A program made the position numbers and the translations under genes. Shown one piece after another: positions 43,804 through 61,751 of a stretch of DNA of 64,000 nucleotides. How positions within the stretch are numbered: the first letter of the stretch is position 1; each line of letters starts with the position of its first letter. The DNA is taken from the NCBI GenBank assembly GCA_963810095.1, contig CAWEMM010000014.1, positions 224,001 to 288,000 on the forward strand. The letters run 5' to 3'. Origin of the DNA: an uncultured Chloroflexia bacterium (GTDB taxonomy: Bacteria; Chloroflexota; Anaerolineae; CG2-30-64-16). The notes below the pieces were generated by a model. That model saw only the letters and a list, made by a program, of their open reading frames with translations, was not told where the DNA came from and searched no databases.

Positions 43804-44949
43804 TCAGCCGGCCGAGTAGATTGCCAGGATGTTTTCGAGCGGCGTCTCGGGAACGGCCTCGTGCGACGGGCCGAGGACCAGCCCGCCGCGTGCGCCCCAC
43901 AGATCGCGCGCTCGCTGCACCTCTGAGCGCACCTGCTGCGGCGACCCGCTCACCAGGAGCTTTTGCACGTCGATGCCGCCGCTGATGCAGACGTCGCGCC
44001 CGTACCTGGCATAGACCGTCGCGAGGTCCATGTCGCGCGCCGAAGTTTGGACGACGTCGAAGACGTCGATCCCCGCGTCGATCATCATCGGCAGCACTTC
44101 GTGCACGCTGCCGCAGCAATGCCAGCTGAACACCAGCCCGTAGCGTTTGACCTCGGCGATCATCTCCCGGTAGAGCGGCTGGAAGTACTTCCGGAACAGC
44201 GCCGGCGCAAACATGATGTGCTCTTGCCCGGCCACGTCGTCCCACGACGCATACAGGTTGGCCGCATGACCGAAAGCCGCGAGCGAACGCCTCGAAAACT
44301 CCAGGCAGAACTCTCCGACTTCGCCGATCAGCCGCTCGGCCAGCCCCTTGTCGAGCACCATATCCATCAGGAATTGCTCCATCCCCCGCAGGTAGGAACA
44401 GATCATGAATAGGTTGTTGAGGACGCCCATGCAGACGACGTGCTGCTCGCGGCCCGCCAGCGTGTCACAGGCCAACGCGCTCTCCTCCTGCCCGTGTTTG
44501 GCCTGCCGGTTGACCATGCAGGAGAAGTCGAAGTCGGCCAACCGGTGCATCAGGAAGCCCGCAGGGAGGTCGCTCGCGCGCTCCACACGCGCAAGCGGCG
44601 GATCGGCATACGCGGGATACTCGAACCCAAGCTCGTCCACCCCGCCCGAAATCGCGGGGATGCCGAGCGTGTAGAAGTAAGCGCCGTCAGGGACGTAGCG
44701 CCCGGCCGGCGCGGGCCCCCGGTAGGCGGGCAGGAAGGTGGCCCAGGCGTCGACGCGCGAGCCCGAGGCCCAGAAGTCCGCGCCGAGACAGTCGAGAAGC
44801 GCCTCGGCCGCCCCGAGACCGCCGGCCGGATCGAGATCGAAGTGGGCCATCAAGCGGCGCACGAGGACCTTCGATCCTCGGAAATGCGTCGGGATCCGGT
44901 CGACCGGCCGGCGCCCCGCAGCAGCCAGATAGCGCTCTCTGCCGTTCAC
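43804..44949 (-). CDS. Uroporphyrinogen decarboxylase/MtaA-CmuA family protein (paralogue 1)
   Basis: MNGRERYL..DRIP, YLRGMEQFL.D, WDDVAGQ, WHCCG, GGIDVQ, GPSH. Confidence 0.88.
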   Translation of the reverse strand: MNGRERYLAAAGRRPVDRIPTHFRGSKVLVRRLMAHFDLDPAGGLGAAEALLDCLGADFWASGSRVDAWATFLPAYRGPAPAGRYVPDGAYFYTLGIPAISGGVDELGFEYPAYADPPLARVERASDLPAGFLMHRLADFDFSCMVNRQAKHGQEESALACDTLAGREQHVVCMGVLNNLFMICSYLRGMEQFLMDMVLDKGLAERLIGEVGEFCLEFSRRSLAAFGHAANLYASWDDVAGQEHIMFAPALFRKYFQPLYREMIAEVKRYGLVFSWHCCGSVHEVLPMMIDAGIDVFDVVQTSARDMDLATVYARYGRDVCISGGIDVQKLLVSGSPQQVRSEVQRARDLWGARGGLVLGPSHEAVPETPLENILAIYSAG

Positions 44950-44967
44950 CTGTGTCCCCCGTCTCCG

Positions 44968-46515
44968 TCAGCCCAGGAAGCGGTCGTAGAGTTGATGGTT
45001 GACCGGCGCCAGGGCGCCGTAGAGCTGCTTGTAGATCGGGAAGAGCTCGGCGTAGCGAGCGGTCACCTTGAGATCCGGCTCGAAGGTCACGCCCGGCTTC
45101 CACACATGCTCGAAGGCATCCTGTTCGTCCCGGTAGATGCCGACCCCGATGCCCCCCAGCAGGGCGGCGCCCATCGGCGTTGCGTCTTCCACCGCGGGCA
45201 CTTCGATCACCTGCCCGACCATGTCCGCCTTGTTCTGCATCCAGAACTTGTTGCGCACCGCACCGCCGACGACCACCAGCTTCTCGAACGGGACGTTCAT
45301 CTCGTTCTGCATCGTCTTCACGACGTCGAGGAACTGGTAGTCCAGCCCTTCGATGATCGCGCGCAGCATATCGCCCTTTTCGACAAAGTTGCTTAACCCC
45401 ACAAAGCCGGCCAGCGAGCGGTTGTCCACCGTCGGGCAGCCCGCGCCCGACATGTGGGGGAGGAACATGACCCCACGCGCACCCACGGGAGACTGGGCCG
45501 CCTCCGCCATCAGGTAATCCCAGTCCACACCGCCCGAGGTCTCCGCCTGGCGCTTGGCCTCGAACCCGTACTGCTTGCGATACCACTCCAGCATGTCGGA
45601 CGAGACTGCGCCGCCCCAGACGGCAAACAGGTTCCGCGCGACATGCGCCTCCACGGTCACCCCGGCCCGCTGCGCCTGGGGCGTGAGGACGGGGGCCGGC
45701 GTCGAGGCCAGAACGACTTCCCAGGTGCCGCTGACGTCGAGGATGGCGCCCGGCTTGATGGCGCCGACCGGCAGCGCGCCGCACAGATAGTCGTGCCCTC
45801 CGAGCACGACGGGCGTGCCGGGCGCCAGCCCTGTGGCCTCCGCCGCATCCGGCGTAACGCCGCCGATGACCGTGCCGCTGGGGAACGCATCGCAGAGAAT
45901 CCGCCTGTCAATCCCCGACAGGGCCAACATCTCGTCCGACCAATTCAGGTTGCACTGGTCGAACAAGAGCGTGCACGAGGCCATGGTGTAATCTGTCGCG
46001 GCGACGCCGCACAGCATGTAATTAACGAAATCCTCGATGAGCAGCCACTTGTGCGTTCGCTTCAGGATCTCGGGCTCGTGCTCGGCCATCCACAGCAGCC
46101 GCAGCGCGGTGGAGAAGCGCCAGAGCGTGTTGCCGCCAATCGAGAAGGTCTTTTCCGCGCCGATGTGCTTGACCCACCAGTCAAACTGCGGCTGAGTGCG
46201 CGGGCAGTGCCAGCTGATCATGGGGTAGAGCCAGTTCCCGTGTTCGTCGATGGGCAGGCCGTCCATCCCCATGCCGGTGACCGCAATCGCTTTTACGTCG
46301 CGCGGATCGCCGACCGCGGCCATGGCATCCTTCAGCGCGGCCGCGCTTCCGCCCCAGATCTGTTCGGGCTGCCACACGGTCCACTCGGGGTGGAGCGGAT
46401 CGGGATGGAAGCGTTCGGTTGGCCGCGAGCCGCTCGCGATGACATTGCCCTGCGTATCGTAGATGACGGCCTTGAGGCTGGTCGAGCCCAGGTCAATCCC
46501 TGCCAGATAAGCCAT
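44968..46515 (-). CDS. FGGY family carbohydrate kinase (xylulokinase/fuculokinase-like)
   Basis: GIDLGSTSLK, GGHDYLCG, SGTWE, LPHMSG, VGGAVRN..Q.KAD. Confidence 0.93.
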   Translation of the reverse strand: MAYLAGIDLGSTSLKAVIYDTQGNVIASGSRPTERFHPDPLHPEWTVWQPEQIWGGSAAALKDAMAAVGDPRDVKAIAVTGMGMDGLPIDEHGNWLYPMISWHCPRTQPQFDWWVKHIGAEKTFSIGGNTLWRFSTALRLLWMAEHEPEILKRTHKWLLIEDFVNYMLCGVAATDYTMASCTLLFDQCNLNWSDEMLALSGIDRRILCDAFPSGTVIGGVTPDAAEATGLAPGTPVVLGGHDYLCGALPVGAIKPGAILDVSGTWEVVLASTPAPVLTPQAQRAGVTVEAHVARNLFAVWGGAVSSDMLEWYRKQYGFEAKRQAETSGGVDWDYLMAEAAQSPVGARGVMFLPHMSGAGCPTVDNRSLAGFVGLSNFVEKGDMLRAIIEGLDYQFLDVVKTMQNEMNVPFEKLVVVGGAVRNKFWMQNKADMVGQVIEVPAVEDATPMGAALLGGIGVGIYRDEQDAFEHVWKPGVTFEPDLKVTARYAELFPIYKQLYGALAPVNHQLYDRFLG

Positions 46516-46555
46516 GCCTGCACCTCCCTGTGTCCGCTACCGCGGCTTGTCGCGC

Positions 46556-47581
46556 TCAGTATCGCCCGAACTGCCGAAGCGTCTGCATCATTGCCGCGTA
46601 GTTTTCCGGCTTCACGCCCGAGTGAATGCTGTTGCTCGAGGACAAGATGTAGCCGCCGCCCGGCATGCCCTCGCGCAGCGCCTGCTTGGTGGCCTCTACC
46701 GTCTCTTCCACGCTGCCGAAGGTCAGCAGGTCGGCGCAGTCGACGTTGCCCTTGATGGCGATGCGATGGCCGTACTTCGCCTTGACCTCAGGAATGCTCA
46801 TGCCGCCCTTTGGGTCGATCGGATCGAGGCAGTCGATGCCCGAGTCGATGATCATATCCAGGATGGGCCACAGGTTGCCGTCGGTGTGCTTGATCACCAG
46901 CAGCCCGAGGTCCTTGTAGCCGCCCATGACCCGGCAGAGCCCGGGATAAAACAGCTTGCGGAAATGGCGGGGCGACATCAGCGGTCCTTTGCTCGAACAA
47001 TAGTCGTCGCCCGTATAGACGATCTTCACGCCCCGCGCCACTAACTCCTTGGCCATGACGAGGTTAATGTCCACCGACATGTCGACGAGTCCCTGGACTA
47101 ACGCAGGCTCGCCCGCAATCGCCATGAGCAGGTTCTCCATGCCCATGAGATAGCGCGGGAGCGAGAAGACGTCGTTGAGGTGCACGACGACCGCGTATTG
47201 GTCGCCGTATTCGGCAAGCGCCTTCTCTACCGACGCATAGCGGCCCGGCTTCAATGGGTCAGGCGGCGCATAGCGCTCGAAGTCCGCCATCGTCGCGATG
47301 GGCGACTCCACTTCGATGCCATGTTCCTCCTGCGTCTTCTGGCCCACGTAGCCCCACTCGCTGCGATAGCGCCCATCTTCGAGCGGCTCTTTCGTGAAAT
47401 TGGGGTCGACGAGGACCGCGTCGTGGCCCATCCGAACCGCGAAATCATTGTGATCGCGACAGCCCGGCAGCAGCGCGTCGCGCACCTTCCGGTCGACCAG
47501 CCATTCAAAGTGTGGCACCCGGTCTGGCTCCTGTCGCTGCAGCGCGGCCATGACGCGTTCTTTTGAGGTCATTTCGGACAA
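46556..47581 (-). CDS. UROD/MtaA-CmuA family protein (paralogue 2)
   Basis: MTSKERV..EPDRVP, SEWG, GMENLL, GDDY, KHTDG, KGNVD, SSSNS. Confidence 0.9.
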   Translation of the reverse strand: MSEMTSKERVMAALQRQEPDRVPHFEWLVDRKVRDALLPGCRDHNDFAVRMGHDAVLVDPNFTKEPLEDGRYRSEWGYVGQKTQEEHGIEVESPIATMADFERYAPPDPLKPGRYASVEKALAEYGDQYAVVVHLNDVFSLPRYLMGMENLLMAIAGEPALVQGLVDMSVDINLVMAKELVARGVKIVYTGDDYCSSKGPLMSPRHFRKLFYPGLCRVMGGYKDLGLLVIKHTDGNLWPILDMIIDSGIDCLDPIDPKGGMSIPEVKAKYGHRIAIKGNVDCADLLTFGSVEETVEATKQALREGMPGGGYILSSSNSIHSGVKPENYAAMMQTLRQFGRY

Positions 47582-47636
47582 TTGATTAACCCTCCGTTGC
47601 TGTGCTGGTGCCGGCTGCGCTCGACTCTCACTGTGG

Positions 47637-48599
47637 TCAGCACAGAGCGAGGACCGCTTCTGCCGCCAGATCGTCGATGATTAGCCAGTCGATGACGCCG
47701 CTGCGTACGGCGCCAAGGATCGCGGGGGCCTTGGCCTTTCCCGAGGCCACCGCGATGACGTTCGGGAAGCGGTTGAGGTCGGTCCAGTCGACGCCGATAA
47801 CGCAGGAGTTGAACCAGGGAATCTCCACGTACTCCCCGTTCAAATCATAAAAGGAGGAACAGACCGCCCCGACAACCCCCTGGCGGTCAAGCCGCCGGAG
47901 TTCCTCGTATGAGATGTAGCCTGAGTGATACTGGGTCGAAACCCCGGGAACGATGGAGCCGATGCCGACCAGGGCAATATCCGACTGTTTTGCCAGCTCC
48001 AGCACCTCGCGCACCGACCGGTCTTCCCGCAGCGCCTCCGCGACGCTTGCACTATCCACTCGCATGGGTGCGTTAAGGTAGTAGTGCTGTGCGCCGAAGA
48101 TCTCGCCTGCTCGCCGCACCTGCTCCGGGCCGTCGATCGTCGCATGTGGCGCGCCCACCCCCCCGAGCAACTGCACGACCTTGAGGTTTGGCAGGCGCTT
48201 CGGCCGCAATTCACGTATTACGGTATGCACCGTGGTCCCCCACGACAGGCCGAGCGTCATCCCGTCGTGGAGCATCCTGTCGAGGGCGGTCACGGCGAGG
48301 CGGCCCAGTTGGCGGCGCACTTCATCGTCGCTGGTGTTCCGGCACTCGACGACCGACACTTCCTTCAGGGCAAAGGTGCGGGTGAACCGCTCCTCCAACT
48401 CGGGCACGGTCGGTATGGGTGGGTGCACCCGTATTTCGACGATGCCAAGCTCGCGCGCCTCGAGAAGGAGTCGCGAGATTGACGGCCGCGACAGGCCCAC
48501 CAACTTCGCGATTTCATCCTGAGAGAGGCCGTCGGCGTAATAGCGCTGGGCGATCTCTGCGATCAACTGCAGACGGTCAAGCGATAGCTGCTCTGCCAT
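47637..48599 (-). CDS. SorC/DeoR family sugar-binding transcriptional regulator
   Basis: YYADGLSQDEIA..SRPSISRLL..GIVEI HTH; SWGTT, DIALVGIG, KAPAILGA, IIDD. Confidence 0.95.
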   Translation of the reverse strand: MAEQLSLDRLQLIAEIAQRYYADGLSQDEIAKLVGLSRPSISRLLLEARELGIVEIRVHPPIPTVPELEERFTRTFALKEVSVVECRNTSDDEVRRQLGRLAVTALDRMLHDGMTLGLSWGTTVHTVIRELRPKRLPNLKVVQLLGGVGAPHATIDGPEQVRRAGEIFGAQHYYLNAPMRVDSASVAEALREDRSVREVLELAKQSDIALVGIGSIVPGVSTQYHSGYISYEELRRLDRQGVVGAVCSSFYDLNGEYVEIPWFNSCVIGVDWTDLNRFPNVIAVASGKAKAPAILGAVRSGVIDWLIIDDLAAEAVLALC

Positions 48600-48660: not shown

Positions 48661-49635
48661 TCATGCTTCGGCCTGGGTTAAGACGCGCTCCGCTGCTGCG
48701 TCATCCGTTACGAGCACATCCGGGATTCCGGTTCGCAGCGCGCCCAGGATCGCGTCGGCCTTCCCACGCCCACCTGCGACGGCCAAAACCGTCCCGTACT
48801 GCTGCAGATGATCCCAACTCGGCCCGATGGTACACGCCTCGAGCCTGTGCAGTGGCGTGCGGCGCCCCTGCAGGTCGAAGTAGTATTGGCAAAACGCGCC
48901 CACCGACCCTCGGGCGCGCAGATCGTCCAGCTCGGACAGCGAGACGTAGCCCGCCTGGTGCGTCGTGCTGGTCTCCGCCTCGGTCGTGCCGATCCCGAGC
49001 AGCGCGATGTCGGAGCGCCCTGCCAGCTCCAACACCTCGGCGATCGAGTGGTCAGAGCGCAGCGCCGCCGCCACCTCGGCGGAGCTGACGATGAGGGGAG
49101 CATTGATGTAGAAGTGCTGGGCCTGCAGGACGGCCGCGGCCCTGCGCACTTGCTCGGCCGCGTCGATCTGCCGGTAGCTCATTCCCACGCTGCCGACCAG
49201 TTGGACGACTCGCACGCCGGTCAGCGCCCTTGGAGACAGCGCCCTCACTACGGCCTGGCTCGCCGTGCCCCAAGCGATGCCGACGACCATATTATCCTTG
49301 AGCAGTTCGCCCAAGACAAGCGCCCCCAGGCTGCCCAGGAGCGACAGCACCTCCGCGTCGGTGGCCGTCCGGCGCGCCAGCACGCGCGCCCCGCGCAGCC
49401 CGAAACAGCGGACGAGCCGCGTCTCCAACTCGGGCACGGTGGGGATGGGCGGCTTCAGGCTGATCTCCACAATGCCGAGCTTCTTGGCTTCGTCGAGCAG
49501 GCGGGCGACCGCGGACCTTGAAATTCCTGCGCGCGCGCCGACTTGCTCCTGCGACAGCCCTTCGAGGTAGTACCACTGCGCGACGTCGGCCGTCAGCCGG
49601 AGCCTGTGCCCACTCTCGGGCCCCACGTTGGGCAT
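48661..49635 (-). CDS. SorC/DeoR family sugar-binding transcriptional regulator (second paralogue)
   Basis: YYLEGLSQEQVG..SRSAVARLL..GIVEI; AWGTA, DIALLGIG, KADAILGAL, VTDD. Confidence 0.95.
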   Translation of the reverse strand: MPNVGPESGHRLRLTADVAQWYYLEGLSQEQVGARAGISRSAVARLLDEAKKLGIVEISLKPPIPTVPELETRLVRCFGLRGARVLARRTATDAEVLSLLGSLGALVLGELLKDNMVVGIAWGTASQAVVRALSPRALTGVRVVQLVGSVGMSYRQIDAAEQVRRAAAVLQAQHFYINAPLIVSSAEVAAALRSDHSIAEVLELAGRSDIALLGIGTTEAETSTTHQAGYVSLSELDDLRARGSVGAFCQYYFDLQGRRTPLHRLEACTIGPSWDHLQQYGTVLAVAGGRGKADAILGALRTGIPDVLVTDDAAAERVLTQAEA

Positions 49636-49692
49636 ATCGAGCACCTCACCGATCAGGGACACGGCATATGCAAAATGCCTTGTCCCTACACT

Positions 49693-50886
49693 CTAGTGGT
49701 CCATCGCCAATAGGAACTCCCGCGAGTAGGCGCGTTCGATAGGATACCGTCCGTATTCCACTCCGGCACGGGCAAGCGCCAGGGCATTCTGGCCCGGCAC
49801 GTCGGCCTGCAGGTTGTGAGTGGGGCACAGAATGTACCCCCCGCCCGGCGCGAACGACTCGATCTTTTGCCGCACCTCGGCGCTGACCTGCTCCTCAGTC
49901 CCGAAGGGGATGACTCCCTGCGTGTCCAACCCGCCGTGGAAGGAGATCCGGTCGCCGTAGGCTTCTTTCAGGCCCAGCGCGTTCATGCCTCGGGCGCGCG
50001 TCTGCACCGGGTCCAGCACGTCGACCCCAATCTCGATCAGGTCCGGGATGATCGGCGCCACCGCGCCGCACGTGTGCAGCATCAGCTTGCACTCGTAGTT
50101 CCCCAGGTCGGCCAGTCGTTCCTTCACCGCACAGTACACGTCGGCCAGGATGGGCTTGACCAGGCTGCGGAACACCCGAGGCGAGATGAGCATGCCCGTC
50201 TGGATTCCGAAATCCTCGCCGCCCAGGCGGACCACCGACAGGTACTTGCCGATGTGCTTCAGCCCTTCCAGATACACCTGCTTCTGGATGGCCGCGACGC
50301 GGGTCATGAGCTCTCGGCAGAAGTCGGGGTCGGTCGCCACGTACATCAGCCAGTCGGCCTGGCCGGCCATGTAGTTGCCCATCTCCCAGATGTTGTCGCC
50401 GAGCCGCCCGCACAGCGCGTAGTCCGTCGTCTTGTACAGGTGTTGCACCTGGTCGCCCACCCCTTCATAGCGGGCGGGGTCCAGTGGATTGGGCCACGCA
50501 TACGCGTCGAGCAATTCGAGCCGTGGCGCCTTGATGGGCCAGTCGTGGATTTCGAACTGGTCGCCCTGGTCGGGCCGGGTCACCTTCCTGAAGGTCACGC
50601 CCCACTCGTCCGACCACTCGTCCATGGCGAAGCTGAAAGGCGCCCGGTTAGCGGGGCCGCGCACGCCGACCCAAACGAAGTCGACGCTCAGACGCTCGAT
50701 CACGTCGAGGCCCGGCTTCACGCGATCCCAGACGTCGGGCTTCAGGACCTCGTCAGGCAGGCCCAGGGCGTGCCGGGCGGCAGCATAAGGCACCTTGGTC
50801 CAGGTGATGTCGATGGGAACGCGGTCGGGCTCCTGATGATTGAGGGCCAGCCGCACGCGCTCTCGGGATGTTAGCTCTGATCTCAT
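49693..50886 (-). CDS. UROD/MtaA-CmuA family protein (paralogue 3)
   Basis: TSRERV..EPDRVP, DEWG, GEDFGIQ, LHTCG, HGGLDTQ, CPTHN. Confidence 0.9.
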   Translation of the reverse strand: MRSELTSRERVRLALNHQEPDRVPIDITWTKVPYAAARHALGLPDEVLKPDVWDRVKPGLDVIERLSVDFVWVGVRGPANRAPFSFAMDEWSDEWGVTFRKVTRPDQGDQFEIHDWPIKAPRLELLDAYAWPNPLDPARYEGVGDQVQHLYKTTDYALCGRLGDNIWEMGNYMAGQADWLMYVATDPDFCRELMTRVAAIQKQVYLEGLKHIGKYLSVVRLGGEDFGIQTGMLISPRVFRSLVKPILADVYCAVKERLADLGNYECKLMLHTCGAVAPIIPDLIEIGVDVLDPVQTRARGMNALGLKEAYGDRISFHGGLDTQGVIPFGTEEQVSAEVRQKIESFAPGGGYILCPTHNLQADVPGQNALALARAGVEYGRYPIERAYSREFLLAMDH

Positions 50887-52043
50887 TACCCGCTCACTGC
50901 CATGGAATGCAAGGGATAGGCGCCATAGGTGCGCCAGCCGTCAAAGAATGCAAGTATGTTCTCGAGCGGCACGTCGTCGCCGATGTTGTGTGATGGGGCC
51001 AGGATGTAGCCGCCGCCCGGACCGAGCTGCTCGATCCGCACGCGCACTTCCTCGCGCACCTCGTCGGGCCGGCCCGCGGGCAGCAGGTGCTGCGCGTCGA
51101 CTCCACCCAGAAAACACAGGCGGTCGCCGTACTCGGCCTTGATGATGGCTGGATCCATTCCCTTTGCGGCCACCTGGATCGGGTTCAGGATGTCGACGCC
51201 GATCTCGACCAGGTCGGGGAGGAACCGGCGGATGGACCCACAGGTGTGATACATGACCCGAACGCGAGGCGAATGAGCCTTGATCGCCCGGATCAGGTCG
51301 GCGTGGGCGGGCTTGAGCAGCGCCCGGTAGGTTGCGGGCGAAATCAGGGGCCCGCCCTGGGTGCCCAAGTCGTCACCCATCTCGACCCATTCGACGAAAT
51401 CGCCGACCGCGTCGAGCTGCGCGAGATATAGCGCCTTCAGCCCCTCCTCCACCCGCCAGAACAGCGCCTCCGCGAACTCGGGCTGGAGCACCATATCGGT
51501 CAGCAGTTGCTCGGTCCCGCGCAGCACCTGGCAAAGTTCGAATAGCCCGTTGTACTTGGGCCGGTAGGCCGCGAGCGCATAGTCGGTCTCGCGGTAAAGC
51601 CGCTGGGCCTCCTCGCGCAGGCCCTCCCACCGGGCCGGGTCGCGCGCATCGGGGAGAGGAAGGTCCGCGAGGCTTTGGATCGTGGCGCCGGCAAGCGGAT
51701 GGTTCGTGTACTCGTACATCATGCCGTCGCCGTGCTCGCGGTAGATCAGCCCCCAGTCGTAGAACCAGCCCCCGCCGGGCGCCGGGTGCTGGCGGAACCC
51801 GGTGGGCGGGCGCATGTACAGGAAGCGCACGTCTGTGCCCAGCGCATCGAGCACCCGGTTGTCAAGGCGCATCAACTGCGGCCCCACCAGCACAGCCGGT
51901 GTCTCGCCCCGGATGCTGAAATGCTGCTTGAGAAGCTCGATGCGTGACTCGGTGATCTTGCCGCCCGTCCCGCCCACGCAGACCGGGACCCGGTCCGGCT
52001 CTCGATGCTCCAGCGCGGCGCGTACACGCTCGCGCGATGTCAT
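50886..52043 (-). CDS. UROD/MtaA-CmuA family protein (paralogue 4)
   Basis: MTSRERV..EPDRVP, DWG, GDDLGTQ, YHTCG, GGVDAQ, APSHN. Confidence 0.9.
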   Translation of the reverse strand: MTSRERVRAALEHREPDRVPVCVGGTGGKITESRIELLKQHFSIRGETPAVLVGPQLMRLDNRVLDALGTDVRFLYMRPPTGFRQHPAPGGGWFYDWGLIYREHGDGMMYEYTNHPLAGATIQSLADLPLPDARDPARWEGLREEAQRLYRETDYALAAYRPKYNGLFELCQVLRGTEQLLTDMVLQPEFAEALFWRVEEGLKALYLAQLDAVGDFVEWVEMGDDLGTQGGPLISPATYRALLKPAHADLIRAIKAHSPRVRVMYHTCGSIRRFLPDLVEIGVDILNPIQVAAKGMDPAIIKAEYGDRLCFLGGVDAQHLLPAGRPDEVREEVRVRIEQLGPGGGYILAPSHNIGDDVPLENILAFFDGWRTYGAYPLHSMAVSG

Positions 52044-52065
52044 GGCGCACATAGCGCGCCGCCTC

Positions 52066-53339: not shown

Positions 53340-53425
53340 ACAGCCCCTCCTGAGCCGCTTAGGGTGGATGAGTGGATCCCGACAGAAGCTGTAAATGGCG
53401 CGGTCAAGCATGCCGGCGCGGCGCC

Positions 53426-53832: not shown

Positions 53833-53845
53833 CGAATCCTCTCCT

Positions 53846-54334: not shown

Positions 54335-55459
54335 TCAGCGTGCCTCCATGTTCGCCGTTGCCACCAGCTTCGACGTGGCCGCGTCGAAGACATACATGCG
54401 GCAGTGTTCGAAGGTCAGCCACAACGGCAGGCCGACCGGCGCGCTGGACAAGCAATCGGAGATCAACTCGACCAGGTGCTCGCCAAACTGCGCCGTGACG
54501 ATGGGCGTATGGCCCGAGTGCTCGACCGCATAGACGCTTGCGGGGATCGAATGCGGCGCCTCGTTGAGATCGCAGGCGACGTCTGGCGGGCGGACGCCGA
54601 TGAGAACTTCCTGGCCCACGCCGCTGTCGACGAGCGCATCCTTCGTGCAGTCGTCGAGCGGAATGAGGTGGCCGGCCAGGTCGAACGCCATGTGGCCGTC
54701 TGTGGAGACAAGGCGGGCCGGCAAAACGTTCATCGTCTGGTCGCCGCCGAAGCGCGCCACGTCAACGGACACCGGGCGCTCGTACAGGTCGCGGGGCGAC
54801 CCGATTTGCTGCACCTTGCCGGCGAAGATGACGACGATCCGGTCGGCCATCGCCATCGCCTCGGTCTGCGCGGGGGTGGCGTAGATGGTCGTCGTGCCCC
54901 GGTCGTGCTGGATGCGCTTGAGCTCCGCGTACATGCGGTGGCGCAGCTTGGCGTCGAGGTGCGCGATCGGCTCGTCGAGCAGGGTGACGGCGGGCTCGCG
55001 GATCAGGCAGCGCCCCAGCGCCACGCGCTGCCGCTGTCCACCGCTCAGCTCGCGGGGCGTGCGCTTCAGCAGCATGTCGATCTGGAGCACCTGGCTGATT
55101 TCCTTCACCCGGCGCTCGATATCTTCCTTGCTGTACTGCCCGCGGCGGCTGGGCACGTTGAGCGGGAACGCCATGTTTTCAAAGACGGACATGTGCGGAT
55201 AGAGCGCGTAGTTCTCGAACGCCATGGACACATTGCGCTCGGCCGTGTCCACGTCGTTCATCGGGCGATCGTCGAAGCAGATCGTGCCGCCGTCGAGCGG
55301 TTCCAGCCCGGCTATCAGCTTGAGCGTGGTCGTCTTACCCGCACCGGCCGGCCCAAAAATCACGAGGAACTCGCCCTGGTTGGCCGTGATGCTCATGTCG
55401 GAGACCGCGGCGACCTTGCCGTAACGTTTTGTAACGCCATCGAGCGTGATTACAGCCAT
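54335..55459 (-). CDS. Carbohydrate ABC transporter ATP-binding protein (MalK-like) 2
   Basis: [28 protein letters not shown]. Confidence 0.92.
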   Translation of the reverse strand: MAVITLDGVTKRYGKVAAVSDMSITANQGEFLVIFGPAGAGKTTTLKLIAGLEPLDGGTICFDDRPMNDVDTAERNVSMAFENYALYPHMSVFENMAFPLNVPSRRGQYSKEDIERRVKEISQVLQIDMLLKRTPRELSGGQRQRVALGRCLIREPAVTLLDEPIAHLDAKLRHRMYAELKRIQHDRGTTTIYATPAQTEAMAMADRIVVIFAGKVQQIGSPRDLYERPVSVDVARFGGDQTMNVLPARLVSTDGHMAFDLAGHLIPLDDCTKDALVDSGVGQEVLIGVRPPDVACDLNEAPHSIPASVYAVEHSGHTPIVTAQFGEHLVELISDCLSSAPVGLPLWLTFEHCRMYVFDAATSKLVATANMEAR

Positions 55460-56588
55460 GTCTGTGCTCCTCCGCCGTCGCCTGATCGCGGCGCACTGAC
55501 GAGGTTTTGGCCGGTCTGTGCGTCGAAAAAGTGCAGGTGGTTGCCGAACTCCAGGAAGATAGGCTGCTTGGTAGCCGGGAAGAAGTCGGAGCCCGAGACT
55601 GCGAGCAGAACTTCGGAGCCCACCCGGGCCGTCACCACATTGTAATCTCCGTGCGGCTCGAGCCCGTACACTTCGGCCGCCACGCCTGCGCCGCCCGGCG
55701 CCCCCCGCGGGTTGACGTGCAGCGGCCGGACGCCCAGCGTCAGGTCCGTCTTGTTCGCCCGGTCGAGCGCGGCCACTGTCGCCGGGTTCTGAACCGGCAG
55801 GCAGAGTCCATTCGACTGGAACAACAGTTGGTCCTGCTCGCGGCGCACCTGGCCCTTGACGATGTTCATCGGCGGCTCGCCGATGAAGCCGGCGACGAAG
55901 AGGTTGGACGGGTGGTCGAACAGCTCTGCGGGCGTGCCCGCCTGCATGACGACGCCGAGGTCCATGACGACGATGCGGTCGGCCATCGCCATGGCCTCGA
56001 TCTGGTCGTGGGTCACATAGAGCATCGTGGTGCCCAGGCTGCTCTGGAGGTGCTTGATCTCCTTGCGCATGCGGCGGCGGAGCGTCTCGTCCAGGTGCGA
56101 GATGGGCTCGTCGAACAGGAACACGGCCGGCTCGCGCACGATGGCCCGCGCGAATCGAAACGCGTTGCTTCTGCCCGTCGCCCAACTCCGAGGGGTAGCG
56201 GTCGAGGATGCCTTGCAGGTCGACGACCTCGGACGCGTGCGCCACCCGCTGCTTGATCTGCTCATCCTTGATTTCGCGGACGCGCAGGGGGAAGGCGATG
56301 TTGTCGAAGACGGTCAGGTGGGGGTAGAGGCCATAGGACTCGTAGACCATGGCGATATCGCGCTCGGCGGGGCTTGAGGTCGTTGACCACCCGGTCGCCG
56401 ATGGTGATCTCGCCGGCCGTGATGTCCTCGAGCCCGGCGACCATGCGGAGGGAGGTCGTCTTGCCGCAGCCGGAAGGCCCGAGCAGCGCCAGGAACTCGT
56501 GATCCTTGACCACGAGGTTAAGGTCGCGGACGGCGATGACCTTCTTGTTGTAGATCTTCCAGATCTTGGAAAAGTTGATGGATGCCAC
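55450..56588 (-). CDS. Carbohydrate ABC transporter ATP-binding protein (MalK-like) 1; frameshifts near 56370 and 56160
   Basis: GPSGCGKT, YGLYPHL, degenerate LGDGQKQR, FDEP, YVTHDQ across three frames. Confidence 0.85.
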
Positions 56589-56604
56589 TGCCGCTCTCCT
56601 CCCG

Positions 56605-57534
56605 CTAACCCTTCACCGCACCCAGCGTCAGGCCGCGGACAAGATACTTCTGGATGGCGATCGCCAGGATCAGGACCGGCACCACCGTGAGCAGGACGGC
56701 GCCCGACATGGGCCCCCACATCATGCCCGTGAATGTCCGGTATAACGTCAGGCGCACGACGGCTGTCTGGTGCTCGCCGCTCGTCAGCAGGGAACTGAAG
56801 AGGTAGTTGTTCCAGCTGAAGATGAAGCACAAGAATCCGGTAGCGACCAGGCCCGGGCGGACGAGGGGCAGGATGATGCGCCAGAACGTCCAGGTGCCCG
56901 ACGCCCCGTCGACCTTCGCCGACTGCTCGATCTCGACCGGGATGTCTTTGAAGAACCCGAGCATGATCAGGACGACCAGCGGCAACGTGATGAGCTGGAG
57001 CACCAGCCACATGCCCCAATAGGTGTTGTAGAGGTGGATCTTGTTGTACAACACGAACAGGGGAATGATGATCAGCAGGGGCGGCATGAAGTACAGGCTG
57101 AGATAGAAGAAATGGATGTCGCCCTTCTGCTTGAAGTTGTACCGGGCCAACACGTAGGCCACCGGCGTGCCCAGCAGCAGCGCGATAAACACTGCCGGGA
57201 TGGTAACCAACAGGCTGTTGGTGATGGCCTGGATGAAGTCGACGCCCGTGAGGGAGGCCGGCCCGGCAAAGACTTCCTTCCAGTTGTCCATGGTCGTGAG
57301 GAAGCCAAACAGCTTGGGCGTCTTAGTGTAGATCTCGCTCTCAGCCTTGAACGCCAGCGTGAAGGTCCAGTAGATCGGCAGGAGCGAGAAGAGGCTGTAG
57401 GCGATCAAGGCGACATAGGTGAGGACCTTGCCGATGACCGCCGAGGCGCTGAACGCCGTCTTGTGGATCTGGAGCCCGGCAAGTTCCGCCTGGGACAACC
57501 CTTCGATATTACCGAGTCCTTCGATAACAGCCAT
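56605..57534 (-). CDS. Carbohydrate ABC transporter permease (MalG-like)
   Basis: EAA loop IPVEIEQSAKVDGAS, FIFSWN, GLTLGAVKG. Confidence 0.95.
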   Translation of the reverse strand: MAVIEGLGNIEGLSQAELAGLQIHKTAFSASAVIGKVLTYVALIAYSLFSLLPIYWTFTLAFKAESEIYTKTPKLFGFLTTMDNWKEVFAGPASLTGVDFIQAITNSLLVTIPAVFIALLLGTPVAYVLARYNFKQKGDIHFFYLSLYFMPPLLIIIPLFVLYNKIHLYNTYWGMWLVLQLITLPLVVLIMLGFFKDIPVEIEQSAKVDGASGTWTFWRIILPLVRPGLVATGFLCFIFSWNNYLFSSLLTSGEHQTAVVRLTLYRTFTGMMWGPMSGAVLLTVVPVLILAIAIQKYLVRGLTLGAVKG

Positions 57535-57544: not shown

Positions 57545-58423
57545 TTACGCCCAGCTTCGCGAGACGCGGTTGAACAGCTTCTTCGAAATGATCAAGACCA
57601 CGAAGAAGAGGAACACGCAGTAGGCGCCGGCCTGGCCGAGCAGCATGTTGCGGTAACCCGTGATCGAGGCTTGCAAGCTGAGCGTCGTCGTTACATCACC
57701 CGGTCCACCGCGGGTCGCCACCTGGATCACCTCATATCCGTTGAGGGCCAGCACCAGGCGGAACAGCAGCACGAGGAAGATGGTGGGCATGAGCTGGGGC
57801 AGCGTGACCATGCGGAAGGTTTTCCAGCTGCTCGCACCGTCGACCTCGGCCACCTCGTACTGGAGGCGCGGGATGGATTGCAGGCCGGCGAGCAGGATCA
57901 GCGCCACGAACGGGGTGAAGTGGTAAACGTCGATGGCGACTACCGAATAGAGCGCGATGCCTGAGTCGGAGAGCCATGCAGGCGCGTTAATGCCGATGCC
58001 GCGCAAGGCGTAGTTGACCCAACCGAGGCTGGGGTCGAGCAGCGATTGCCACATGAGCGCGCCGGTTGCGGGCGGCAGCATCAGCGGCAGGAGGATCAGA
58101 ATCCGGAACAGCCAGCGCCCCCTGATCGGCTTGTTCATGAGGAGCGCAAGGCCAAACCCGAGCAACATCTCGATGCCCACCGCGAGGACGACGTATTGCA
58201 GGCTGACCCAGGCGGCGTGCCAGAAGACCCTGCTCGTGAACATCTTGATGTAGTTGTCAAACCAGATGAATTTGGAGGCGGATCCATTGAGGAGGGTGTT
58301 CGTCAGGCTGGTGTAAAAGGCGTAAAGAATGGGGTAGATGGCGATGAACATCACCAGGATAATGCTGGGCAGGGCCAGGAGCACCGGGGCCCGCGCCTTC
58401 ATGCGCTTCATTGAGATACTCAT
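57545..58423 (-). CDS. Carbohydrate ABC transporter permease (MalF-like)
   Basis: LAGLQSIP..YEVAEVDGAS, TLPQL, TRGGPG. Confidence 0.95.
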   Translation of the reverse strand: MSISMKRMKARAPVLLALPSIILVMFIAIYPILYAFYTSLTNTLLNGSASKFIWFDNYIKMFTSRVFWHAAWVSLQYVVLAVGIEMLLGFGLALLMNKPIRGRWLFRILILLPLMLPPATGALMWQSLLDPSLGWVNYALRGIGINAPAWLSDSGIALYSVVAIDVYHFTPFVALILLAGLQSIPRLQYEVAEVDGASSWKTFRMVTLPQLMPTIFLVLLFRLVLALNGYEVIQVATRGGPGDVTTTLSLQASITGYRNMLLGQAGAYCVFLFFVVLIISKKLFNRVSRSWA

Positions 58424-58583
58424 GCTCGCTCTCCATCGTACGGGCGACTGTGCCAGCGCCGCTGGCCGAGACTGGACTATTCCACCCCCTGGTCCCACGA
58501 TTCGATCACACCGCGCCGGCGGCGGCCTGGTTCTGCCCACCGGGCAGCCGCCAGCGCAGCATGATAGAGACAGGAGGAGCCTG

Positions 58584-60107
58584 TTACTTGTTCTTCTGTG
58601 CGGCTAGCTTCTCGTAGAAGCCGGCGTCCTTCAGGATTTTCTCGGACTCGACCACGGCGGCGTCAAGCGCCTCTTTCGCGGTCTTGTCGCCCTGGACGAC
58701 CTGCTGGATGGCGACGACCCACGGCCCGGTCATGGCGACCATCTGCGGGCTGACCGTGTAGAAGTTGCCCCAGTACTGGCGGGATTTGTCCACGGCGTCG
58801 CGGTAGTTGCCCCAGTCCTTCGTGATGTTCATGATGCCTTCGCCTTCCCAGGTGGACTTGCGCACCGGGATCATGGCGTGCTGGCATGCGCTCACGACCT
58901 TCATGACTGGCTTGCTGGTGGCCCACTGCAGGAACAGCCAGGCCGCGTCCGGGTGGACGGCCTTCTTGTTGACCGACCAGGCCCAGTACCACACGGGGAT
59001 GCGGACGTCGCCGGTGGGGCCGGCAGGGGGGTTACCGTAGATCATCTTGCCCGCGACCTTCGACTTCGCGGGATTCTCGTAGGTGTCTGCGAAGGCCATG
59101 TCGTCGATGGTGCAGCCCACCTGGCCCGAAGCCATGTTGGCCACGACCATGTCCCAGCCGATCTGGGTCTGGCCGGGAGGTCCGAACTTGCGCAGGGTGT
59201 CGCCGTAGAGCTGCGTGTATTTCACGCAATCCGGGCAGTTGTAGACCGGTTTGCCGTTCTCGTCGAGGTCGGTCTTCGAGTTGGCGAAGAAGCCGGGGGC
59301 ATAACCGTACATCAGGCTGTAGTCGCGCGCGCCGCGCTGCACCACGCCGTACTCACCGTTAGCCGTCATCTTCTCAGCCGCGGCGGCCCACTCGTCCCAG
59401 GTCTTGGGCGGCCCGCTCAGGCCGGCCTTGGCGAGCTTGTCCTTGTTGCAGATCAGCATGAGCGGTTCGGAGTTGACCGGGATCGCGTTCTGCTGGCCCT
59501 TGCCATAGGTGCCAATGCCATACTGGCCGTTCCAGGCGTGGGCATCCCAGTCGGCAGGGAAGAAATCCTTGACGTCGTACCATGCAAGGTCGGTGAGCTT
59601 GGGATCGTTGAGGAACTTGTTGAGGTCCTCGGTCCAGCCGGCTTCCGAATAGGCCCATTCGAACTCGGTGCCGTTCTGGATCAAGTCATAGAAGCCGGTG
59701 CCGCCCTGGAGGTCGGCCGCCGTCTTGGTCCAGAACTCTTCCACGGGCAGGATGTCGTAGACGACGTTGATGCCCGTCAGCTCGGTGAACATCGGGACGT
59801 AGGGCCGCAAGGCGTTGATGTAGGGGTGCGACAGCGCGGCAACGTGGATGGTGATGGGGCCCCCGTTCGCTGTGACGGGCGCTTTCCAGTCGATCTTGGC
59901 GTTAGTGAAGTCTTCCATCTTGAGGTCGCCGCACGCGTTGGCGGCTGCTGCGGCTGCAGGCGCCGCGGTCGCGGCCGGGGCGGCCGCTTCCTGTTTGGCA
60001 GGAGCTTGAGTGGCGGCAGGGGCTGGTGCTGGCGCCGGTTGGGCACAGGCGCTGAGTATGAGCACCAGCGTTAGAAGCACAAAGAACGTTCGCTTCGCCG
60101 GGAACAT
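58584..60107 (-). CDS. Sugar ABC transporter substrate-binding lipoprotein
   Basis: Lipobox LSAC, Pro/Ala linker, FTELTGI, PKTWDE, AAWLFLQW. Confidence 0.93.
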   Translation of the reverse strand: MFPAKRTFFVLLTLVLILSACAQPAPAPAPAATQAPAKQEAAAPAATAAPAAAAAANACGDLKMEDFTNAKIDWKAPVTANGGPITIHVAALSHPYINALRPYVPMFTELTGINVVYDILPVEEFWTKTAADLQGGTGFYDLIQNGTEFEWAYSEAGWTEDLNKFLNDPKLTDLAWYDVKDFFPADWDAHAWNGQYGIGTYGKGQQNAIPVNSEPLMLICNKDKLAKAGLSGPPKTWDEWAAAAEKMTANGEYGVVQRGARDYSLMYGYAPGFFANSKTDLDENGKPVYNCPDCVKYTQLYGDTLRKFGPPGQTQIGWDMVVANMASGQVGCTIDDMAFADTYENPAKSKVAGKMIYGNPPAGPTGDVRIPVWYWAWSVNKKAVHPDAAWLFLQWATSKPVMKVVSACQHAMIPVRKSTWEGEGIMNITKDWGNYRDAVDKSRQYWGNFYTVSPQMVAMTGPWVVAIQQVVQGDKTAKEALDAAVVESEKILKDAGFYEKLAAQKNK

Positions 60108-60330
60108 GGCACTCTCCTTGGCTGTTAGTGGGAATTCGACGTTGGATTCTGCGGCGCGACGTGGCCGGAACTATGCAGTTCCTTCTCCTCCCAATTTACC
60201 TCCTTCTGCGAGGGCGGCTCGCACTCTGGGGCTGGACCCCACAGGCACAATCGGGTTGTTTAGAAGATGAACACGTGAAATCCGGTACAGGTTGGAGGCG
60301 CAACCACTCAGCGACACGGGGGTCAGCCAA

Positions 60331-60361
60331 AAACAAATGCTCTATATTCGATCAGATGTTT
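60331..60361. promoter_or_regulatory. Putative SorC-family operator, copy 1 (CAAATG-N13-CAGATGTT)
   Basis: Overlaps predicted +1 of the minus-strand promoter; same motif and spacing at 60611-60637. Confidence 0.6.
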
Positions 60362-60365
60362 GCCG

Positions 60366-60394
60366 AGTATAGCACGGCCGAAAGGGTTTGTCAA
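60366..60394 (-). promoter_or_regulatory. Sigma70 promoter of the ABC/PTS/UROD operon
   Basis: TTGACA-17 bp-TATACT with extended -10 TG. Confidence 0.8.
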
Positions 60395-60563
60395 CAGGCA
60401 ATTTTTGCGGCGTTGCAATACAAGATTTCGCTTAGCGACGCTCGCCGCAGGCAGGAGACGGCAATTATGTCGGCACCACTGCTTGCGAGCCGAGGGTCCG
60501 GAGTCGTACAATTGCGTAGGTCGCCCACGCTCACGCCAGCGTCCCCTCCGCAGAAACAGCCCA

Positions 60564-60592
60564 TTGACAGGCAGGAGGCGAGGTGATACACT
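60564..60592 (+). promoter_or_regulatory. Sigma70 promoter of the divergent UROD gene
   Basis: TTGACA-17 bp-TACACT with extended -10 TG. Confidence 0.75.
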
Positions 60593-60607
60593 CCGCATTG
60601 TATACGT

Positions 60608-60638
60608 GAGCAAATGTACGAGGATCAAACAGATGTTA
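60608..60638. promoter_or_regulatory. Putative SorC-family operator, copy 2
   Basis: GAGCAAATGTACGAGGATCAAACAGATGTTA just downstream of +1, covering RBS and start codon. Confidence 0.6.
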
Positions 60639-61751
60639 CCACGCGACCGGGTGTGCGCAGCCCTGGAGCACCGTGAGCCGGACCGCGTGCCGCTGAGCCT
60701 CGGCGGCACCGCGCACAAGCTGTCCGACTCGCGGCATGACCTCCTTAAAGAGCATTTCGGCATTACGGGCGACTCGCCGCAGCGCCTCACCGGCGCCTAC
60801 CTGAGCTACGCCGACAACCGGCTGCTCGACGCACTGGGCACGGACATCCGCCAGGTCCACCTGCGGCCGCCCCAGGGTTACCGCGAGAACATGAGGCCCG
60901 ATGGTAGTTGGGTGGACGAGTGGGGCCTCACCCACCGCGTGCTGCCGAGCGGGTTCTACGAATTGGGCGGCACGCCGCTGGCAGAGGCCGGCCGCGACGA
61001 CCTGGATCGCTACCCCTGGCCCGACCCGTGCGATCCGGCCCGCCTTATCGGGCTGCGCGAAGAAGTTGAGACGTTGGCGCACGAGAGCCCCTATGCCATC
61101 GCCGCCTACCGGCCCACCATTTCTGGTATTTTCGAGATGGCGCAGCAGCTGCGGGGCATGGAAAGACTCCTCACCGACCTCGTGCTCGACCGGGGCTTTG
61201 TGGACGGCCTGTTTGCGAAGCTCGCAGAGGTCCAGGCGGAATTCTACCGCGCATATCTCGGGGTGGTGGGGCCCTACGTGCAGATCGTCGAGCTGGCCGA
61301 CGACCTGGGCAGCCAGAGCGGCCCCCTCATCGCCCCCCGCCTGTACCGGGCGCTGCTGCAGGATAAGCACGCCTACCTCGTGCGGACGATCAAGCGGATC
61401 GCACCGCAGGCGAAGGTGATGCTCCACAGCTGCGGCTCGGTGCGGGCGTTCATTCCCGACTTCATTGCTGCCGGGATCGATATCCTGAACCCCGTCCAGC
61501 CGCGGGCCAAAGGCATGGATCCGGCCCTGTTGAAAGCAGAGTTCGGCCGCGAGATCGCGTTCCTCGGCGGCGTCGACGTCCAGCAGACCATGCGTGGCCC
61601 TGTCGAGGGGGTGCGCGACGAGGTGCGCCGGCGCATCGAGGAATTGGGGCCGGACGGGGGGTTTATCCTCGCGCCTTCACATAACTTCGGGGACGATGTG
61701 CCGCTCGAAAATATCCTGGCGTTTTTCGAGGCCGCGCATCAGTACGGGTAA
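60633..61751 (+). CDS. UROD/MtaA-CmuA family protein (paralogue 5, divergent)
   Basis: MLPRDRV..EPDRVP, DEWG, LRGMERLL.D, ADDLGSQ, LHSCG, GGVDVQ, APSHN. Confidence 0.9.
   Translation: MLPRDRVCAALEHREPDRVPLSLGGTAHKLSDSRHDLLKEHFGITGDSPQRLTGAYLSYADNRLLDALGTDIRQVHLRPPQGYRENMRPDGSWVDEWGLTHRVLPSGFYELGGTPLAEAGRDDLDRYPWPDPCDPARLIGLREEVETLAHESPYAIAAYRPTISGIFEMAQQLRGMERLLTDLVLDRGFVDGLFAKLAEVQAEFYRAYLGVVGPYVQIVELADDLGSQSGPLIAPRLYRALLQDKHAYLVRTIKRIAPQAKVMLHSCGSVRAFIPDFIAAGIDILNPVQPRAKGMDPALLKAEFGREIAFLGGVDVQQTMRGPVEGVRDEVRRRIEELGPDGGFILAPSHNFGDDVPLENILAFFEAAHQYG

Follow-up and report, generated by a model that had tools for sequence, protein, structure and literature searches.

Five UROD-fold paralogues in an uptake operon of an anaerobic Anaerolineales bacterium: candidate corrinoid-dependent demethylases of a methylated sugar or polyol

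Introduction

The closest described systems are the three-component O-demethylases of anaerobes, in which a methyltransferase I (MT-I; MtvB, OdmB, VdmB, MtoB or CdmB) acts together with a corrinoid protein, a methyltransferase II (MT-II) and an activating enzyme; MT-I enzymes with the fold of uroporphyrinogen decarboxylase (UROD) are established, some of which bind zinc and others do not (PMC13222342). Here, we analyzed a 64,000-nucleotide stretch of an Anaerolineales genome (positions 224,001 to 288,000 of contig CAWEMM010000014.1, assembly GCA_963810095.1; hereafter the window), which at 43804-61751 carries five genes for UROD-fold paralogues, termed UROD-A to UROD-E, together with an ATP-binding cassette (ABC) system, a phosphotransferase system (PTS), an FGGY kinase and two SorC regulators. 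Our preferred reading, to which we assign an about even chance, is that the five paralogues are corrinoid-dependent MT-I enzymes that demethylate a methylated sugar or polyol with partners encoded in trans. What the analysis shows directly is gene content, fold, conserved residues, partners encoded in trans, synteny, and the genomic association with corrinoid proteins and RACo; that the paralogues bind metal, dock a corrinoid protein and transfer a methyl group, in which direction, and from which class of substrate, is our inference.

Methyl ethers on sugars block ordinary catabolism, and methylated sugars include 4-O-methyl-glucuronate from xylan, 6-O-methyl-galactose from porphyran, 2-O-methyl-fucose and 2-O-methyl-xylose from pectin, methyl-rhamnoses, and pinitol. 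In the accessible parts of the literature searched, the only carbohydrate demethylation found was O2-dependent and catalyzed by the cytochrome P450 6-O-methyl-D-galactose demethylase of marine bacteria (PMC6292453, PMC10033563). No literature linking UROD-family or corrinoid methyltransferases to methylated sugars was found in the openly accessible articles searched, and the words 'sugar' and 'carbohydrate' do not occur in the description of the mlp clusters (PMC10418091). Since only this O2-dependent enzyme was found, the fate of methylated sugars in anoxic sediments and digesters would be an open question, which the gene family described here makes directly testable.

Results

Five UROD-fold paralogues with best matches to MtaA/CmuA methyltransferases

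Four of the paralogues, UROD-A (43804..44949), UROD-B (46556..47581), UROD-C (49693..50886) and UROD-D (50886..52052), are encoded on the minus strand, with UROD-A as the final operon gene, while UROD-E (60633..61751; 55% identity to UROD-D) lies divergently on the plus strand. Their PF01208 (URO-D) scores of 87, 116, 59.9, 93.8 and 79.6 bits exceed the gathering cut-off of 23.9, and the top NCBIfam matches of all five are MtaA/CmuA methyltransferase models and not HemE, although the TIGR01463 (MtaA/CmuA) scores of 58.4, 94.5, 42.3, 52.2 and 49.0 bits remain below the cut-off of 235.4. The HemE model TIGR01464 is matched by UROD-B only, with 20.3 bits against a cut-off of 302.95, and by none of the other four at E ≤ 0.001. 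Likewise, the RQAGR motif, the N-terminal substrate-binding motif of HemE, is absent from all five proteins, in agreement with a preliminary description of the locus that had been made from the bare sequence, and is present in the best HemE match of the genome (C11:71057-72541; 351 bits). These results bear on the explanation that the cluster is decaying or non-functional, or that its URODs are redundant HemE-type uroporphyrinogen decarboxylases, as the sources label them. The scores, the missing motif and the true HemE elsewhere in the genome, together with the integrity of the genes discussed further below, leave this explanation close to refuted.

The same preliminary description had noted an H-x-C or H-x-D motif followed by PSH, PTH or SSN where MtaA has its third Zn-binding Cys, and alignment with MtaA (4AY7) bore this out. 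The motifs read WHCCG, KHTDG, LHTCG, YHTCG and LHSCG in UROD-A to UROD-E, followed by PSH, SSN, PTH, PSH and PSH (within PSHE, SSSNS, PTHN, PSHN and PSHN), which places a His at the position of the third Cys in UROD-A, UROD-C, UROD-D and UROD-E and an Asn in UROD-B. The five proteins therefore lack the H-x-C ... C zinc triad of MtaA/CmuA, with H-x-C retained in four of them and H-x-D in UROD-B, and their lengths of 341-397 aa result from insertions relative to MtaA. Among 48 relatives of UROD-D, residues H269, H355 and N356 are invariant and C271 is conserved in at least 90%, and the paralogues of the genome as a whole display three ligand patterns: H-I-C...G-C (MtaA-like, in about six genes), H-x-C...H, and H-x-D...H/N. 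An AlphaFold2 (AF2) model of UROD-D (pLDDT 93.1, pTM 0.92) gave MtaA 4AY7 (E 3e-16), HemE structures and MetE as top fold matches, and in profile searches against solved structures the UROD type matched MtaA at 1.9e-14 and the MT-I enzyme CdmB (9RUI) marginally at 8e-5. A comparison with a protein atlas returned only unnamed Chloroflexota URO-D clusters and no functional lead. The UROD fold of the MT-I component of a corrinoid-dependent O-demethylase system is represented at the locus, and the N/O-rich site of the paralogues might suit an oxygen ligand better than a thiol.

An alternative, which we consider unlikely, is that the paralogues work without cobalamin, as metalloenzymes of the UROD/MetE fold that carry out new sugar or sugar-phosphate chemistry (isomerisation, epimerisation, dehydration or decarboxylation) at a site of two His plus Cys or Asp, with the corrinoid proteins near some paralogues serving a different subset of the family. 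MetE folds are indeed detectable structural neighbours, the N/O-rich ligands are unlike sulfur-rich thiol-alkylating Zn sites, and URODs of this kind could supply the isomerase, dehydrogenase or aldolase steps that the locus otherwise lacks; moreover, neither the locus nor its syntenic counterpart in a relative (L021, see below) contains a corrinoid gene. The distribution of corrinoid proteins and their activators, described in the following sections, speaks against this alternative, as do the best profile matches, which are corrinoid methyltransferases.

Candidate corrinoid partners encoded in trans

Pfam matches agree with the earlier statement that a corrinoid protein, an activator and a tetrahydrofolate (THF) methyltransferase are missing from the locus itself, and a search of the genome found all three elsewhere. 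Of 22 B12-binding matches, 7-8 are MtaC/MtgC-like corrinoid proteins of about 210-230 aa with an invariant DxHxxG motif, and three RACo activators are present, none of them in the locus. A methyl-THF:corrinoid methyltransferase (L020:11485-12465), which scored 344.5 bits with NF005719 against a cut-off of 259 and provides an MT-II in trans, has genes for a corrinoid protein, for a RACo and for a homocysteine methyltransferase as its neighbours. In addition, an acetyl-CoA synthase (CdhC domain), a RACo and an MTHFR are encoded within 20 kb (G000:C6:918651-938367), which points to a Wood-Ljungdahl cluster in this Anaerolineales genome. The host is an anaerobic Anaerolineales bacterium with a Wood-Ljungdahl pathway.

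Association of the UROD clade with corrinoid proteins and RACo

In the genome itself, 5 of 19 UROD loci hold a corrinoid protein, and the chance that a random 20-kb stretch contains such a gene is, as a rough estimate, about 3% (about 8 genes in 6.1 Mb). Two of these loci illustrate the sugar setting: L004 reads DeoR, corrinoid protein, UROD, TIM barrel, UROD, rhamnulokinase-like FGGY, DeoR/PBP-UROD and sugar ABC system, and L015 reads GH4, five AP_endonuc_2 genes, GFO/MocA, UROD and corrinoid protein. Among 40 loci from 19 other Chloroflexota genomes, a corrinoid protein falls inside the retrieved segment in seven, of which three also carry a sugar ABC system, and at least 16 show sugar-type transport, kinase or regulator matches, a count that is a lower bound because the query set was small. 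Within this set, L057 combines LacI, UROD, a solute-binding protein (SBP), permeases, ATPase, two URODs, a GH57-like gene, a polyol-type Zn-dehydrogenase, a corrinoid protein, a lyxose-isomerase-like gene and FGGY, and L067 combines RACo, URODs and a corrinoid protein. A further 17 related loci included one (L024) in which a corrinoid protein is placed between two URODs. A different setting was found at L044 (G072:C43:68800-88799), where two consecutive pairs of a UROD and a corrinoid protein precede genes for a 4Fe-4S protein, NrfD, a molybdopterin oxidoreductase, a methyltransferase that binds pterin, and two ArsA ATPases, with an adjoining amino-acid-type ABC system.

A FastTree phylogeny of 90 URODs, from which 37 of 127 candidates had been dropped because they covered fewer than 270 of 375 profile positions, placed the five paralogues of the window scattered through one large clade with the H-x-C/D...H/N pattern, interleaved with corrinoid-adjacent members. 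UROD-B is sister to C6_1219410 (43% identity) from the rhamnulokinase-type locus L004 with its corrinoid protein, and UROD-C groups with L044_10312. The corrinoid-adjacent members thus form no separate branch, in contrast to what would be expected if they served a different subset of the family.

When 151 Chloroflexota genomes were searched with a profile of the five proteins (E ≤ 1e-30), the UROD type was detected in 22 and RACo in 51. All 22 genomes with the UROD type also encode RACo, as opposed to 29 of the 129 others, so that a comparison capable of refuting corrinoid dependence did not do so; the naive Fisher p of about 1e-12 is overstated, since the genomes are related to each other. 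Outside the Chloroflexota, RACo is present in 4 of 5 metagenome-assembled genomes (MAGs) with a UROD relative, the fifth, the Planctomycetaceae MAG G153, giving no RACo match. Furthermore, co-folding of UROD-D (48-sequence alignment) with the L004 corrinoid protein (8-sequence alignment) scored 0.62, compared to 0.00 for the best of 3 controls; the mark of the co-fold is reached by 116 of 157 solved complexes and by 2 of 215 mismatched pairs. At least 85% of the contacts are common to the runs, the pLDDT of the partner is at least 80, and the predicted interface joins the C-terminal face of the barrel (segments 180-189 and 231-241) to the cap (56-68) and the DxHxxG and GGA loops of the corrinoid protein. 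The intermingling in the tree, the complete co-occurrence with RACo and the predicted docking all argue against a cobalamin-independent chemistry of the five paralogues.

UROD genes recur in sugar loci of the genome

The 6.13-Mb genome (16 contigs, 88.5% complete) yielded 44 PF01208 matches, one of which is the true HemE (351 bits), and the number of UROD genes is estimated at about 35-40 because several matches are split genes. ORFs were called around the other URODs, and 292 of them were scanned against Pfam, covering 19 UROD-bearing loci. Fifteen of these 19 are sugar loci with sugar transport, kinase, isomerase or glycosidase genes, the sugar context being unclear for L005, L010, L012 and L018. 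UROD genes were recurrently found together with FGGY, PfkB and GalK kinases, with RhaA, FucI, UxaC, UxaE and RhaM, and with sugar ABC systems and PTS. For example, three URODs accompany PfkB and a ribose-type ABC system in L002, two accompany FucI, FGGY, a CUT1 ABC system and RhaM in L006, and two accompany RhaA in L014; single URODs are found with GH78 and GH106 rhamnosidases (L007) and with GalK (L013). The contig of the window also carries, about 130 kb further upstream, a hexuronate cluster (L017; G000:C14:76001-96000) with two LacI, UxaE, UxaC, SDR, a LarA-like gene, a PfkB-family kinase and four or five URODs, and a methylated uronate would be an obvious candidate substrate. The locus in the window, which the preliminary description had treated by itself, is not a singular system but one of about 20 UROD-bearing loci and, as 15 of the 19 surveyed are of the sugar type, one instance of a genome-wide pattern.

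URODs also occur in the inositol-like clusters L015 and L016, with AP_endonuc_2, GFO/MocA and KduI/IolB. As a separate observation, L015 (G000:C12:433000-452999) and L003 (G000:C6:1064000-1083999) are both inositol-like with many AP_endonuc_2 TIM barrels, GFO/MocA, GH4, SIS and FGGY, to which L015 adds a UROD and a corrinoid protein and L003 an MtaA-like UROD of the H-I-C...G-C pattern. Genes for E1 alpha, E1 beta and E2 of a 2-oxoacid (acetoin-type) dehydrogenase adjoin a pair of orthologous URODs from two genera, C9_117610 and L038_9402 (L009:8264-11629 and L038:16045-19418). In two genomes, URODs of CUT1 sugar loci have a creatininase-family amidohydrolase gene as neighbour (L006:8205-8978 and L075:4350-5123).

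The URODs could also be corrinoid-dependent MT-I enzymes whose methyl donor is not an O-methyl carbohydrate but an S-methyl sugar such as a methylthio-pentose, the methoxylated aromatic aglycone of an imported glycoside, or a small methylated compound, a possibility that we regard as rather improbable. All of the corrinoid evidence fits it equally well, and a clade member occurs in the non-sugar setting of L044. L038, from another genus of the same class, has the order Zn-dehydrogenase, UROD, class II aldolase, IIA, IIB, IIC, SorC, SorC, in which the UROD is paired with an aldolase of a family also used in methylthioribose salvage. Known UROD-fold MT-I enzymes have aryl methyl ethers, methyl halides and methyl thioethers as their substrates (PMC13222342; PMC10418091). 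Nevertheless, the repeated co-location with sugar kinases, isomerases, sugar ABC systems and PTS favors a carbohydrate, the locus in the window is without a glycosidase or an aromatic-ring enzyme, and the family is linked to sugar phosphotransfer by a 470-aa protein (P0075) that carries a PTS HPr domain C-terminal to a UROD of this clade with 53% identity to UROD-D.

Organization of the locus

The genes of the window were assigned from an ORF listing and Pfam matches, which bore out the gene content and order given in the preliminary description, including the lack of any dehydrogenase, isomerase, aldolase or glycosidase gene between 43804 and 61751. Its gene list needed correction in that the frames of ATPase 1 and IIC are broken and the starts of UROD-D (about 52052), UROD-E (about 60633) and IIC (about 53411) differ, the first two from the starts of the long ORFs. 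Fifteen minus-strand genes run from 60107 down to 43804, in the order SBP, two permeases, two ATPases, PTS IIA-IIB-IIC, UROD-D, UROD-C, two SorC, UROD-B, FGGY kinase and UROD-A, and UROD-E departs divergently from 60633. The spacing between genes ranges from overlap to about 60 nt, except for about 150 nt before IIC.

A CUT1 solute-binding lipoprotein (SBP_bac_1; 58584..60107) begins the minus-strand series and has as its best solved match a sugar ABC SBP (5IAI) and as its second a protein named as sorbitol-binding (4RYA). It is followed by permease 1 (BPD_transp_1, UgpA/MalF-like by Pfam and NCBIfam; 57545..58540), permease 2 (BPD_transp_1, GlcU/MalG-like by the same means; 56605..57534), the MalK-like ATPase 1 (55450..56600) and the MalK/UgpC-like ATPase 2 (ABC_tran and OB_MalK; 54335..55441). 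The Gat-family PTS set is complete, with a galactitol-type EIIA (PTS_EIIA_2; 53846..54331), a 95-aa EIIB (53560..53844; 41.8 bits with the galactitol IIB model, under the cut-off of 95) and EIIC (EIIC-GAT; 52066..53411) at the locus and EI and HPr elsewhere in the genome; all its components score below the galactitol equivalog cut-offs. SorC-family regulators 2 (48661..49662) and 1 (47637..48599) each have an N-terminal helix-turn-helix (HTH) and a Sugar-bind domain (PF04198), with 228.1 and 202.4 bits for the two proteins. The FGGY carbohydrate kinase (44968..46515; FGGY_N 200 bits, FGGY_C 110.6 bits) has XylB, fuculokinase and LsrK as nearest models, reaches no equivalog cut-off, and is equidistant from xylulokinase, LsrK and glycerol kinase. 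Every match of the kinase, SBP and PTS thus lies under the equivalog cut-off and yields no substrate call; nevertheless, a polyol- or pentulose-like core of the substrate is plausible, given the match of the SBP to the sorbitol-binding protein and the intermediate position of the kinase. The polyol hint of the preliminary description thereby receives weak support, through the second-best solved match of the SBP.

The divergent control region of 525 nt (60108..60632) carries two outward-facing promoter-like elements of near-consensus sigma-70 type, TTGACA-17-TATACT on the minus strand (60394-60366) and TTGACA-17-TACACT on the plus strand (60564-60592), and an operator search found only short two-copy repeats in it. 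Terminator-like sites are not enriched in the locus, with 10 found and 10.5 expected by chance. The locus is bordered by unrelated genes, on one side for a two-component system and a pair of ABC exporter proteins and on the other for a GAF histidine kinase. Elsewhere in the window, polysaccharide-biosynthesis genes (Bac_transf sugar transferase, NAD epimerase/dehydratase, nucleotidyl transferase and DegT-type aminotransferase) are located at 26851-31454. The segment 12000-24000 is poorer in G+C (0.59-0.60 compared to about 0.65) and its AT skew is strongly negative at 20-22 kb; at 12643-16914 a GC3-based gene caller, which also misread the ATPase 2 region, yielded no genes.

Frame breaks and conservation in a relative

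Three single-base breaks fall within 4 kb, so that ATPase 1 spans three frames and IIC two, which at first sight would favor a decaying cluster. Compared to the syntenic L021, however, IIC in the window is short by one base (near 52995) and ATPase 1 has two extra bases (near 56365 and 56152). Contigs from independent public sequencing runs, single contigs for each break with a depth of 6 or less, show the same: one of 198 nt with 0 other differences has a base inserted behind 52995, one of 345 nt with 0 other differences lacks the base at 56152, in agreement with a contig from a second run, and one of 172 nt with 1 other difference lacks the base at 56365. Breaks of the same kind interrupt genes elsewhere in the assembly, namely hemE, rpoB, RhaA and one for a PfkB kinase. 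The frame breaks are single-base assembly errors. All genes of the locus are taken as intact in the organism, because the breaks are absent from L021 and from otherwise identical public contigs and because rpoB and hemE are split likewise. A pseudogene reading of the frameshifts was ruled out by L021 and the near-identical public contigs without the indels.

Single-base indels are frequent in the assembly (window positions 52995, 53482, 56152 and 56365; rpoB, L018:12900-16920; hemE, C11:71450-72468; RhaA, L014:7539-8799), and apparent pseudogenes in it are suspect, given that such indels split essential genes. Short contigs identical to the window come from runs labelled freshwater sediment metagenome, which contain the organism itself or a strain very close to it.

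The sole close relative among species-representative genomes is an uncultured Anaerolineales MAG (L021), in which UROD-D is 85% identical and the syntenic locus is retained at roughly 73-90% amino-acid identity for most genes, which again speaks against decay. Its order is UROD-E, then SBP, two permeases, two ATPases, IIA, IIB, IIC, UROD-D, UROD-C, an aldo/keto reductase and two SorC, and finally UROD-A, and both -35 boxes of the divergent region are kept. UROD-B and the FGGY kinase of the window locus have no counterpart in L021, and a gluconolactonase-like gene, a HAD phosphatase, a third SorC and another FGGY are located nearby.

Discussion

The locus would be an operon for the uptake and first-step catabolism of a methylated sugar or polyol, which would enter via the CUT1 ABC system or the Gat-type PTS. 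The five UROD-fold proteins, as MT-I enzymes, would each bind the methyl ether, probably at a metal site of the His/Cys(Asp)/His(Asn) type atop the TIM barrel, and would let the methyl group pass to Co(I) in a free-standing, MtaC-like corrinoid protein whose gene lies outside the operon. Oxidised corrinoid would be re-reduced by RACo, and the methyl-THF:corrinoid methyltransferase would move the methyl group to THF, from where it would proceed to acetyl-CoA synthase or oxidation. The demethylated sugar would be phosphorylated by the FGGY kinase, or would already have been phosphorylated upon PTS entry, and the two SorC regulators would sense the sugar phosphate. The demethylase proposal of the preliminary description has gained from the corrinoid proteins, RACo and MT-II found in trans, from the occurrence of the clade beside corrinoid proteins in sugar loci, from its confinement among the Chloroflexota genomes searched to those with RACo, and from the co-fold of UROD-D; its cobalamin-independent branch has been weakened.

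Several points weigh against corrinoid-dependent demethylation of a sugar or polyol by the five paralogues. With regard to chemistry, alkyl methyl ethers present a more difficult leaving group than their aryl counterparts. The third Zn-binding Cys of MtaA is replaced in all five proteins and UROD-B has an Asp as second ligand, so that the site, as judged from the alignment, is not of the thiol-alkylation type. A corrinoid protein, an activator and an MT-II are found neither in the window locus nor in the syntenic L021, a corrinoid protein is missing from 33 of 40 and 16 of 17 related loci, and the subclade of UROD-D and UROD-E in the 90-UROD sample includes PTS-linked members (L038) and no corrinoid-adjacent one. 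At L044, the clade appears to have another function, outside sugar metabolism, and not every member handles sugars. RACo also serves the corrinoid iron-sulfur protein of the Wood-Ljungdahl pathway, and one of the three RACo copies is located about 9 kb from acetyl-CoA synthase; the co-occurrence in 22 of 22 genomes, which are also related to each other, may for this reason partly reflect lifestyle. Since complexes of methyltransferases with corrinoid proteins have already been solved, the co-fold result may rest on likeness to these complexes and is likeness rather than proof of binding. CobS was not found in the genome, from which, at 88.5% completeness, no conclusion on corrinoid supply is drawn.

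On a larger scale, more than 3480 relatives of the clade were scored at E ≤ 1e-10, and the clade is present in MAGs of Chloroflexota, Acidobacteriota, Armatimonadota, Bacteroidota and Pseudomonadota. A tentative extension, which we rate somewhat below even, is that carbohydrates are demethylated in anaerobic bacteria through cobalamin-dependent methyl transfer. A large clade of UROD-fold MT-I enzymes would then have specialised in O-methylated substrates (sugars, uronates, deoxyhexoses and cyclitols), would share a small pool of corrinoid proteins in trans and would deliver the methyl groups to the Wood-Ljungdahl pathway. Should the proposed corrinoid-dependent reading be right, it would add a new substrate class for corrinoid methyltransferases, explain dozens of 'uroporphyrinogen decarboxylase' annotations in many Chloroflexota, and let methyl groups bound in glycans feed acetogenic and methylotrophic carbon flow.

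Compared to known systems, the paralogues share with HemE the Pfam family and fold, but TIGR01464 is essentially unmatched, RQAGR is absent and a separate true HemE is encoded in the genome. The methylcobamide:CoM methyltransferases MtaA/MtbA (4AY7) are the best match in both sequence and fold, and the H-x-C motif aligns with their Zn ligands. In contrast to these enzymes, the paralogues reach only 42-94 bits against the TIGR01463 cut-off of 235, have His or Asn in place of the third Zn Cys, contain insertions and belong to a bacterial host; no coenzyme M genes turned up in the surveyed loci. The transport and regulatory genes resemble Gat PTS systems with SorC/DeoR-type regulation, having IIA, IIB and IIC of the Gat type at the locus and EI and HPr elsewhere, as well as CUT1 polyol ABC systems, with the sorbitol-binding protein as the nearest solved structure with a named ligand. 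Unlike a Gat system, however, the locus is without a GatD-type dehydrogenase or a tagatose-bisphosphate aldolase, and the component scores are below the equivalog cut-offs.

Similar to the three-component O-demethylases, the organism encodes UROD-fold TIM-barrel proteins of the MT-I type, small MtaC-like DxHxxG proteins, RACo-type activators and a methyltransferase that forms methyl-THF, and its Wood-Ljungdahl pathway could accept the methyl group. The known O-demethylases act on aryl methyl ethers, methyl halides or thioethers, whereas the context here is one of sugar transport and phosphorylation; moreover, the partners are encoded outside the operon, similarity to CdmB (9RUI) is marginal (E 8e-5), and about 35-40 paralogues are distributed over sugar loci. 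Like the P450 demethylase of marine bacteria, the proposed system would remove a sugar methyl ether so that ordinary catabolism can proceed, and it is likewise encoded within sugar-utilisation loci. In contrast to the P450 route, which is oxidative, requires O2, yields formaldehyde and involves an unrelated fold, it would proceed by anoxic methyl transfer to cobalamin and, if the proposal is true, would represent the anoxic counterpart of P450 sugar demethylation.

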